Virus record (IMG/VR): IMGVR_UViG_2721755725_000010
Source of the DNA: a virus
Taxonomy: Duplodnaviria > Heunggongvirae > Uroviricota > Caudoviricetes
Length of the DNA: 51,823 nucleotides
Strand: one strand, 5' to 3'
Shown here: positions 39,001 to 42,000 of the stretch, in pieces
How the letters are laid out: every line of letters begins with the position of its first letter
How positions within the stretch are numbered: the stretch's first letter is position 1
Program-made: the position numbers

Positions 39001-42000
39001 CTCCCGGCCGGGATAGTGTATTAAATCAGATATGGAGTGGGCTGGCTGTAGTCCGGAAGCCTGAATGACACTCGGGGACTACAGCCCAAGAAATGAAAAA
39101 AGGCCACGCAGTTGCGCAGCCTGATAAACCCTGGTTAAAATCCACACGATAACAACACAACAATATCAGTATCTCATGCTATTGCCCGAACCCATTCGGG
39201 CATTTTTTACCCATAAAAAAAGCCCCTCCGGAGAGGGGCATGTTTGCATGCACATTCTTTTTCTTGCATGGTGCCGGGTGCCTCCCGGTGAATTCAGTAT
39301 CAGCACCTGAATCCGCGATTATCACATATACCTGGTTGCTGATTGCCCCTCCGCACAGGGGGATTCACCATGCAGTAGTATTTTTAATAAACAGCAAATA
39401 AAAAAATCAAGCATTATGCAGGCTGTTTCTTTTTATCACCGGCTACAGCAATACCACAATGCCGCAGACCAGCACCCCATCCGCCAGCACCGACATGATT
39501 CTGCTGGTGAAATCCACCATCACCACCAGAAACAGCAGGAGTGCAGCCACAGCCAGGCGCAGTTTTACCGTCACTGGTGATTCTCCAGACGAAGACCCAG
39601 AACACCGGCAATCTCTTCCAGCACCTTGCGCTCTTCCGGCTCAATTATTTCTGACGTAAACGCGGACAGCGCAGGCTGATTACGCAGTACCTGTTCGATC
39701 TTCGATTTCTAGGAAGCCTCACATTCACCATCTGCACAGGCCACCAGGTAGGCAGCATTAATAACCGCCTGTGCCAGATTGAACCGCCCCGGAAATCCTG
39801 GAGACTAAACTCCCTGAGAAAGAGGTAAACAGGATGACTAAAAATACTCGTTTTTCCCCCGAAGTCCGTCAGCGGGCGATTCGTATGGTTCTGGAAAGTC
39901 AGGATGAATATGACTCACAGTGGGCGGCAATTTGTTCCATTGCCCCAAAGATTGGCTGTACGCCGGAGACTCTGCGTGTCTGGGTTCGCCAGCATGAGCG
40001 GGATACCGGGGGCGGTGATGGTGGGCTCACCAGCGCTGAACGTCAGCGTCTGAAAGAGCTGGAACGTGAAAATCGTGAACTGCGCCGCAGTAACGATATC
40101 CTTCGCCAGGCTTCCGCTTATTTTGCGAAGGCGGAGTTCGACCGCCTCTGGAAAAAATGATGCCACTGCTGGATAAGCTGCGTGAGCAGTACGGGGTCGG
40201 ACCGGTATGCAGCGAACTGCATATTGCCCCGTCAACGTATTACCATTGTCAGCAACAGCGACATCATCCGGATAAACGCAGTGCCCGTGCGCAGCACGAC
40301 GACTGGCTGAAGAGAGAGATACAGCGCGTATACGATGAAAATCATCAGGTGTACGGTGTGCGTAAAGTCTGGCGTCAGTTGTTACGGGAAGGAATCAGGG
40401 TGGCCAGATGTACAGTGGCACGTCTCATGGCGGTTATGGGACTTGCCGGTGTTCTCCGGGGTAAAAAGGTCCGTACGACCATCAGCCGGAAAGCCGTTGC
40501 CGCAGGCGACCGCGTAAACCGTCAGTTCGTGGCAGAACGACCTGACCAGCTGTGGGTGGCTGATTTTACTTACGTCAGCACATGGCAGGGCTTCGTCTAT
40601 GTGGCGTTTATCATTGATGTGTTTGCCGGATACATCGTGGGGTGGCGGGTCTCATCGTCTATGGAAACGACATTCGTGCTGGATGCGCTGGAGCAGGCGT
40701 TGTGGGCCCGTCGTCCGTCTGGCACCATCCATCACAGCGATAAAGGCTCTCAGTATGTGTCACTGGCCTATACGGAGCGACTAAAAGAAGCCGGATTACT
40801 GGCATCAACAGGGAGTACAGGCGACTCGTATGACAACGCGATGGCTGAGAGCATCAATGGTCTTTACAAAGCGGAGGTAATACACCGTAAGAGCTGGAAA
40901 AACCGTGCAGAAGTGGAACTGGCCACACTAACGTGGGTGGACTGGTATAACAATCGACGATTGCTGGGAAGGCTGGGCCATACTCCTCCGGCAGAAGCAG
41001 AAAAAGCTTATTATGCTTCCATCGGAAACGATGATCTGGCAGCCTGAGTTCACAGATAAAACACTCTCCAGGAAACCCGGGGCGGTTCACATCGCGTTTC
41101 TCAAACTTTCCTTTTTCCGGTTAACGTGACACACCAATAACTCTTGTCGAAAAAGCCAGCAAGCTGAAAGACCGGTATTCACCGCCGCCAGCGCGTTTAC
41201 TGTACTGACGCGATTTTCGGACATAAAAAAAACGCCTGGCGGCAGTTTTTTTCTTACTTTGCCATCGCGTACAAAATAGGCAAAATATCAGATTTATACG
41301 AAACATACGCGATTTAATTGACTTTTGCAATATCTCGTCGTGAAAAGGTCGCTTTTTGTTGCGCTCTTATTTTCACGGAGCAAATCAAGGATTCTCTATC
41401 GAGGCGCTTAAAAATATCGCACATCTCACGCCAGTAGTTCGCATAATTATGGCTCCAGTTATCAGGCTTAACTCCACACAGTCTGGCAAGCTCCTGTCTC
41501 TGGTAGACCTCACACCCGGTAACCCATCCTCTGACATCCTGTGCCGCCAGCCAGATCAACTTCTTCACACGCTCCAGCGTTTTCACTGCAATTTTTCTGG
41601 TACCAGACTGAGTTTTAAATTCATTCCACACCCACTGCGTTATCGCGATCTGATGCTCCCAGCAAATGTTTCCGCCATAACACCACAACAACCACGCCTT
41701 CTGATGTTCTTCCAGTTCCAGAAGGGTACGCCGCCACGATGATGTTGCAAACTCAACAGGACTGACCAGGGCAATTGATGAGCCTTTCGCCAGTGATTGT
41801 TTACCCGGGATTGGGGGATTATCCCGCGTGATCATTTTTCCGGTTACCTCATCGCGGTAACGAATTTTTTTGCGTCTGTAACGCCCTGTATCGAACAGGG
41901 CATTTTCCTGCCAGGCTTCCAGTTGACCTTTTGTCGCCCCACTGAGATCCGCAGTGGCAATCATGAGTTGCTCACGAACAAACTGTAAATACTGGTTATT

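Follow-up and report, generated by a model that had tools for sequence, protein, structure and literature searches.

Remnants of a tciA-tciB (TerB-family and DUF3927) gene pair in a defective lambdoid prophage of Escherichia coli O111:H8

The DNA considered here is a 51,823-nucleotide (nt) viral sequence of the class Caudoviricetes (IMG/VR record IMGVR_UViG_2721755725_000010), referred to in its entirety as the window; the feature of interest is a two-gene remnant on its minus strand, at 39443-39779, where a preliminary description had placed a truncated TerB-like frame with an in-frame TAG and, overlapping its stop, a 43-codon open reading frame (ORF) for a hydrophobic peptide. Positions 38900-44000 of the window are 100% identical to the prophage region of E. 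coli O111:H8/NM chromosomes, such as that of strain E2855, and the entire structure of this interval is found in 27 complete genomes; the host element is a defective lambdoid prophage of E. coli O111:H8. In the RefSeq annotation, the order of the genes is lysozyme, YdfR, a class II holin, an esterase of 616 amino acids (aa), the DUF3927 protein WP_001344632.1, a pseudogene labelled “hypothetical protein, internal stop”, an insertion sequence (IS), the “bacteriophage antitermination protein Q”, and a second IS. The pseudogene corresponds to the remnant of tciA, whose intact form encodes a protein of the TerB family, and the DUF3927 protein to a shortened product of tciB; the module is very probably a pseudogenised tciA-tciB pair that acquired five successive lesions in the course of ordinary prophage decay.

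Regarding the tciA remnant, the translation of 39571-39810 on the minus strand ends with NLAQAVINAAYLVACADGECEAS, an in-frame TAG (39709-39711), KSKIEQVLRNQPALSAFTSEIIEPEERKVLEEIAGVLGLRLENHQ and a terminal TGA (39571-39573), which confirms the coordinates first given for the TerB-like frame. The remnant contains codons 23-45, the TAG at codon 46, codons 47-66, a deletion junction, and approximately codons 119-143 before the TGA; in the parts shared with its intact allele the DNA identity is ∼90-96%, and the missense changes include Y37C (39737) and A48S (39705). The TerB call had been made from motifs only, and profile searches bore it out: the fragment matched phrog_632 “tellurite resistance” with E = 2.1e-24 and, taken alone, obtained 19.6 bits on Pfam TerB (PF05099), under the gathering score of 24.4, whereas the intact homologue (143 aa, phage PPyecE_EH1910) obtained 60.9 bits. 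Intact TciA spans phrog_632 from end to end, and it matches the sequence of the solved Klebsiella TerB structure 2JXU, an all-helical fold of ∼150 aa, over residues 14-137 (E = 9e-8). By descent the remnant is a member of the TerB family, but its present sequence no longer qualifies for it.

Four residues of TciA, namely D39, G40, E46 and E124, are invariant in an alignment of seven phage lineages and are parts of two acidic ADGxxxxxE motifs, for which a role in metal binding has been proposed. In the window, the first motif reads ADGECEAS and is then interrupted by TAG instead of the invariant E46, while the ADG of the second falls within a 156-bp deletion; for these two reasons, the remnant cannot work as a TerB protein.

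As for the small ORF, it encodes MTVKLRLAVAALLLFLVVMVDFTSRIMSVLADGVLVCGIVVLL and starts with a GTG at 39572-39574 that overlaps the TGA of tciA as GTGA (39571-39574), an overlap already read correctly in the preliminary description. The 43-aa peptide is above the cut-off of Pfam DUF3927 (PF13064; 45.6 bits, cut-off 25) and matches phrog_1470 with E = 1.6e-21; intact TciB has 59.3 bits on the same Pfam family, and it also matches phrog_1470, described as “TciB-like”. The ORF is hydrophobic, as first stated, but it is not intact: members of the TciB family have a full length of ∼50-59 aa and a C-terminal (W/F)Pxx(K) motif, which is absent in the window copy because it ends at residue 43, and both P45 and K48, invariant in TciB alignments, lie beyond the premature stop, together with the positively charged C-terminus of the protein. 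On the single transmembrane helix predicted for the peptide, two analyses point different ways: the AlphaFold2 monomer model of TciB is one continuous helix (residues 3-53, predicted local distance difference test score of 87), whereas the hydropathy profile has two hydrophobic maxima (∼residues 7-20 and 29-44) parted by the polar stretch DFTSR; positive charges are present at both ends (K4 and R6; K48 and R49). Elsewhere, in-frame VVM duplications give TciB forms of 57-58 aa.

Megablast against phage genomes found the same DNA with both genes intact in PPyecE_EH1910, annotated as “TciA/TerB-like protein” plus a hypothetical protein, and in JLK-2012, annotated as tciA and tciB; the intact proteins have 143 aa (TciA) and 54-55 aa (TciB). 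These sequence matches identify the pair as tciA-tciB, a module that received its name in phage P1; it is an already annotated system and not a new one. The suggestion that the locus is the remnant of a two-gene module is supported, as neither of the two results named beforehand as refuting it, absence of a TerB-family hit and absence of conserved co-occurrence, was obtained. It needs amending on three counts: the module already had a name, the lesions are more numerous than noted (the 156-bp in-frame deletion in tciA had gone unmentioned), and the peptide is itself truncated, the translational coupling being now a relic.

The lesions were read from alignments with intact alleles, including that of the closest intact relative (L094), which differs from the window by one position in the 267 nt located 3' of the 156-bp deletion (99.6% identity), G to A at 39444. 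The first lesion is a deletion of ∼1.9 kb or more that joins a leader proximal to Q to codon ∼18-19 of tciA: by BLAST, the leader segment of the window matches the sequence directly after Q in other loci (L001, 1264-1402; L082, 3-122, the latter ∼1.9 kb upstream of tciA), and the junction with tciA lies within a microhomology, the short imperfect repeat CGGAAA..AAAAAG, at ∼41106-41120. With this deletion the start codon of tciA is gone, and an in-frame TAA occurs at 41121-41123; judging from the intact relatives, where they normally lie 170-250 nt 5' of the gene, it also took out the tRNA genes for Ile(CAT), Arg and Arg, and no tRNA was found in the window. The canonical 5' end of tciA was not found in the window either, in a search allowing up to three mismatches. 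A diverged N-terminus with a +4 frameshift upstream of codon 18 was considered and ruled out, because BLAST and the alignments identify this sequence as the Q-proximal leader joined by deletion. The second and third lesions are nonsense changes: GAG to TAG at codon 46 of tciA, and TGG to TAG at codon 44 of tciB (W44; 39443-39445), the latter reducing TciB from 55 to 43 aa. The fourth is the 156-bp in-frame deletion, which covers ∼codons 67-118 of tciA and has its junction at 39646/39647; the fifth is the insertion of an IS629/IS1203 element at codon 23 of tciA, found in a subset of O111:H8. The removal of the 5' end of the gene had been attributed to IS629, and this attribution was not upheld: the IS splits the gene at codon 23 and leaves 20 nt of tciA (codons ∼18-23) on its far side, the start codon having been lost earlier by the other deletion.

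The order of these events, lesions 1-3 followed by 4 and then by 5, is derived from which genomes share which lesions. Lesions 1-3, with the same leader junction, are common to prophages of O157, O121, a Shiga toxin-producing E. coli from marmot and a dog isolate; these copies still have the 156 bp, and their 43-aa product is the same, WP_001344632.1 being shared by the marmot and dog isolates with O157, O121 and O111. Among the copies examined, lesion 4 was confined to those of O111, and it is present in O111 strain 95NR1, which is IS-free at this site. Finally, 27 genomes have the IS in tciA, whereas four O111 genomes (95NR1, 95JB1, 8B and 8E) are without it, their site being 99.9% identical to the IS-less reconstruction. 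In the resulting scheme, the fusion of leader and tciA deleted the start codon and, going by the intact relatives, the upstream tRNA genes; the change of E46 to TAG then destroyed the invariant Glu of the first ADGxxxxxE motif; the W44 codon of tciB became TAG at the third step; the in-frame deletion took the second ADG motif; and the IS629/IS1203 element entered codon 23 last.

The module of the window is inactive as a TerB system, and nothing but a fossil of the coupling is left in its GTGA overlap, since the frame before it is dead. Loss of this copy is unremarkable, because another O111:H8 prophage has an intact tciA-tciB pair (WP_000466957.1 and WP_000216636.1) and because tciAB-like DNA is common: of 5426 complete E. 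coli genomes, 1112 have it, at a median of 3 places each. Amber suppression by a phage tRNA, conceivable with both stops being TAG, was rejected: the window has no tRNA, its tciA is without start and motifs, and the tRNAs at the intact copies are for Ile, Arg and Arg.

The coordinates of the remnant and of the neighboring features are collected in Table 1. The IS in tciA is 1310 bp long, has 25-bp terminal inverted repeats and belongs to the RefSeq family IS1203 (IS629 type); on the minus strand its flanks read ATG before and ATC after the element, an imperfect 3-bp target duplication of which one copy is at 41090-41092. The four empty-site O111 genomes read ATG at the IS target and other lineages ATC, a difference that could derive from excision keeping a mutated copy or from a polymorphism older than the insertion. 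A second IS copy, 98% identical and inverted, is at 42092-43401, with 1002 bp between the two copies and Q bracketed by them; a third starts at 5541. An inversion between the inverted copies, displacing the 5' end of tciA, was discarded as unneeded, because the 5' piece is directly across the IS and four genomes have the site uninterrupted.

Table 1. Features of the tciA-tciB remnant and of its surroundings in the window (positions are those of the whole stretch)
Feature	Position	Strand	Basis
Q-proximal leader segment (normally just 3' of Q)	41111..41230	-	BLAST and alignment with intact loci
5' piece of the tciA remnant, codons ∼18-23, K-F-E-K-R-D, AAAGTTTGAGAAACGCGATG	41090..41109	-	
IS3-family element, IS629/IS1203 type, 1310 bp, in tciA codon 23	39780..41089	+	
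3' part of the tciA (TerB-family) pseudogene	39571..39779	-	PHROG and Pfam profiles, alignments, RefSeq pseudogene
tciB (DUF3927) cut to 43 codons	39443..39574	-	Pfam, PHROG, alignment; product identical to WP_001344632.1
Former 3' end of tciB, codons 45-55 (PVIKRNSLHNA) and TGA, no longer translated	39407..39442	-	Alignment with intact L094
Gene of the Q antiterminator, 5' of the module and flanked by two IS copies in inverted orientation	41314..42009	-	
Gene of a 616-aa esterase of the NanS-p type (SASA/DUF6645), 3' of the module, with holin and lysozyme genes after it; a marker of the late-operon moron slot	37145..38995	-	
STnc100 small RNA	39209..39399	-	Rfam, 143 bits
AgvB anti-GcvB small RNA, convergent with STnc100	39147..39208	+	Rfam, 96.5 bits

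The co-occurrence of the two genes, postulated from the window copy, is conserved in other genomes. It was evaluated on 101 TciA-type loci, which included 80 close relatives from IMG/VR, 13 species-representative genomes and 8 annotated phage records (PPyecE_EH1910, JLK-2012, P1, an Erwinia jumbo phage, Pseudomonas phage PMBT3, Vibrio phage K479, Escherichia phage Fostie and the N4-like Salmonella phage FSL SP-076). The partners were sought by scanning ORFs with profiles built from our own alignments; tblastn with TciB gave no match in phage genomes, probably because its low-complexity filter masks the hydrophobic query. A TciB-profile ORF was immediately 3' of tciA in 96 of the 101 loci, overlapping it by 4 nt (GTGA type) in 83 cases and by 1 nt in 10, and abutting it or lying within 3 nt in two; as the 80 loci from IMG/VR belong to close relatives in E. 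coli and hardly differ from one another, the evidence rests on ∼15 independent lineages. Of the five exceptions, two are contigs with their end directly behind tciA, and the other three come from Pseudomonas or Vibrio. The pair spans lambdoid prophages, P1, Erwinia jumbo phages, the N4-like Salmonella phage and prophages of ∼10 Enterobacterales genera, and it occurs in genomes of Franconibacter, Pantoea, Pseudescherichia, Dryocola, Serratia, Symbiopectobacterium and Pectobacterium.

With regard to its position in the prophage, the remnant has the Q antiterminator gene on one side and the genes for the nanS-p esterase and lysis on the other, a late-operon slot that agrees with the moron position first assigned to it; the intact loci have the order Q, tRNA trio, tciA-tciB, small RNA (sRNA) region, nanS-p esterase, holin and endolysin. 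In the Stx1 phage BP-4795 (L108, 1669-2895), stx1AB is found where tciAB would be, with the same sequence of sRNAs and nanS-p following downstream, and the two pairs appear to be alternative morons at one insertion point. A cluster of tRNA-Ile(CAT), tRNA-Arg(TCG) and tRNA-Arg(TCT) is usual ∼170-1000 nt upstream of intact lambdoid tciA (L018, L022, L031, L093, L094, L109 and others); in P1 and JLK-2012, tRNA-Asn/Thr are upstream of tciAB, and the copy of the Erwinia jumbo phage is between tRNA genes, so that tciAB recurs next to phage tRNA clusters. On the other side of the module, STnc100 starts 8 nt past the ancestral stop of tciB, and a permissive Rfam scan found no RNA family within the tciAB remnant itself. 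Tree et al. (2014, PMC4104026) described enterohaemorrhagic E. coli (EHEC) lambdoid prophages with convergent sRNAs between a moron coding sequence and a conserved downstream ORF; the layout of the window is that of this scheme, and a 2026 preprint lists TerB among the genes common near related prophage sRNAs.

Several known systems are comparable with the pair. The closest are tciA-tciB(-tciC) of P1 and the copies in the lambdoid JLK-2012, PPyecE_EH1910 and Fostie, in the Erwinia jumbo phage and in FSL SP-076, which have the same families, the same order and the same stop/start overlap as the window. The TciA proteins of P1 and of the intact lambdoid locus share 41% identity, and the whole of P1 TciB can be aligned, with the pattern DF(T/S)S...LxDG...WPxxK; as differences, P1 has a third small gene, tciC, absent from the window, and its genes are outside a Q-dependent late operon, whereas the window copy is a disrupted pseudogene. 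The TerB protein of the terZABCDE(F) cluster (Klebsiella, 2JXU) shares PF05099, a similar length and a significant sequence match with intact TciA; unlike in the ter cluster, no other ter genes adjoin the window copy or the intact loci, and instead of the multi-pass TerC a 55-aa peptide is the partner. In particular, none of terC, terD/E or terZ/A is next to the terB-like gene of the window, whose neighbors are Q, IS elements, sRNAs, the nanS-p esterase, holin and lysozyme, and the phenotypes concerning tellurite, colicins and phage inhibition have been shown only for the whole ter cluster (PMC7371120, PMC11003894). In the N-terminal region of DjlA and in YebE (DUF533), a TerB-type helical domain is held at the inner membrane by a transmembrane segment, and TciA weakly matches both; in these proteins, however, anchor and domain are one polypeptide whereas the tci pair would give two products, and the matches are below the family cut-offs, so that the likeness is an analogy only. 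Finally, the moron slot located 3' of Q/pR' in EHEC prophages, occupied by stx1AB or stx2AB, the ileZ-argN-argO tRNAs, the convergent sRNAs AgvB/AsxR and nanS-p, is the position of tciAB as well; unlike the stx cargo, tciAB is not a toxin, and the window copy is without the tRNAs.

As for the function of the intact pair, TciA would be a soluble TerB-domain protein and TciB a DUF3927 membrane peptide, made in a fixed ratio from the Q-dependent late transcript. TciB would insert in the inner membrane, its two charged ends lying on the cytoplasmic side, and would tether TciA at this face, giving a two-piece equivalent of membrane-anchored TerB-domain proteins such as the N-terminal region of DjlA, YebE/DUF533 and the TerB-TerC complex; in lysogens or late in phage development, such a complex may serve to sense or buffer stress of the envelope or from ions, or to keep out colicins or superinfecting phages. 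The tethering idea is based on the near-constant coupling of the two genes, the charges and hydropathy of TciB, the sub-threshold matches of TciA to DjlA (NCBIfam, E = 6.4e-7) and DUF533 (E = 1.6e-5), the reported partnership of TerB with TerC, a membrane protein (Turkovicova 2016, as cited in PMC11003894), and an ORF of Pseudomonas juntendi. Tethering of TciA by TciB, with a role in stress or exclusion, is a tentative proposal, somewhat short of an even chance. The ORF of P. juntendi (L107, 2441-2644) encodes 67 aa with a hydrophobic N-terminal stretch, has no similarity to DUF3927 and shares 4 nt with the end of a TciA-type TerB gene, stop codon included; its product may be a membrane partner of analogous role and separate origin. 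In a genome-wide CRISPR interference screen, tciA, tciB and tciC of P1 were non-essential for plaque formation and lytic growth (PMC10695390), and the tci genes are a variable region among P1-like phage-plasmids (PMC9603915).

A number of points weigh against this account of the pair and of its decayed copy. Pseudomonas phage PMBT3 and Vibrio phage K479 have a TciA-type gene without a small membrane ORF downstream, so the partner is not universal; a search of the literature returned no paper testing the function of TciA or TciB, and the names of the P1 tci genes rest on homology only. PADLOC-DB 2.0 has no defence-system model matching either protein, the best result being a non-significant one for TciA (E = 0.0028, 14.8 bits) and none for TciB, and the single-helix AlphaFold2 model neither supports nor excludes a hairpin topology of TciB. 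Concerning the decayed copy, the 43-aa peptide could still be translated: a GGAG, similar to a Shine-Dalgarno sequence, is 10 nt upstream of the tciB GTG, and at least 992 contigs encode the exact product, which carries the annotation MULTISPECIES in Enterobacteriaceae.

Among the alternatives to simple decay, the least improbable is that the remnant is kept for RNA roles, its 3' portion serving as promoter, 5' or processing sequence of the STnc100-type sRNA. This would be compatible with the pseudogene reading, and it is suggested by the location of STnc100 and of the convergent AgvB directly beyond the ancestral tciB stop, by the description of convergent sRNAs at such moron sites in the work of Tree et al., and by the near-identity to the intact allele of the sequence located 3' of the 156-bp deletion. 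It is nevertheless rather unlikely, because a consensus promoter scan gave no sigma-70-like site on the minus strand within the remnant, and because Stx1 phages retain the sRNA and nanS-p region without any tciAB sequence, which makes the sRNA independent of tciB DNA.

A second alternative is that cells continue to produce the truncated TciB and that it functions in its own right, for instance as a small membrane-active peptide, in which case selection would explain the spread of the allele. The number and host range of the contigs with the exact product, the occurrence of the same WP_001344632.1 in O157, O121, O111, marmot and dog isolates, the GGAG before the GTG and a DUF3927 score above the cut-off speak for it; in addition, locus L059 pairs a different 43-aa TciB, also truncated by a stop at W44 and with one residue changed (G34), with an intact tciA. 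Against it, the peptide is devoid of P45, K48 and the charged C-terminus; in the decayed copies examined, the 43-aa allele is on one haplotype with a dead tciA, AgvB, STnc100 and nanS-p, and hitch-hiking explains its spread, the linkage to the sRNAs and nanS-p being a sufficient reason for the wide distribution of the dead haplotype. Moreover, other truncated forms of TciB are common too (37 aa, on 889 contigs), which looks like recurrent decay, and the copies of the allele are too alike for selection testing. A retained function of the 43-aa form is thus improbable, and only a small chance is given to the broader version in which TciA-TciB would be a split, membrane-tethered TerB sensor or protector in unrelated phage types, with the amber allele kept for its own activity beyond hitch-hiking. 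The third alternative, that of chance ORFs or of a spurious resemblance to TerB, has in its favor only the score of the window fragment under the Pfam threshold, and it is refuted by the ∼90-100% DNA identity with intact, annotated tciA-tciB genes, by the PHROG E-values (2e-24 and 2e-21) and by an intact homologue that passes the TerB cut-off, so that its probability is negligible.

The reading of the locus as a pseudogenised tciA-tciB pair explains the pseudogene flagged by RefSeq, and it documents the stepwise decay of a moron in an EHEC genome with many prophages, in which an intact copy survives at another place. About one in five complete E. coli genomes has the pair, often several times, at the slot of the Shiga toxin genes; as gene order and overlap are conserved across very different phages, the intact pair is a reasonable target for functional studies, while the broken copy is not.

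As a minor observation on the surroundings, the second IS is inserted upstream of Q at the point where a DUF977 pseudogene with a frameshift joins a partial ORF (43402-43700 and 42010-42091). In 95NR1, the same two pieces abut without IS, from which it follows that the replication and nin region of the prophage was already gone when the IS elements inserted.

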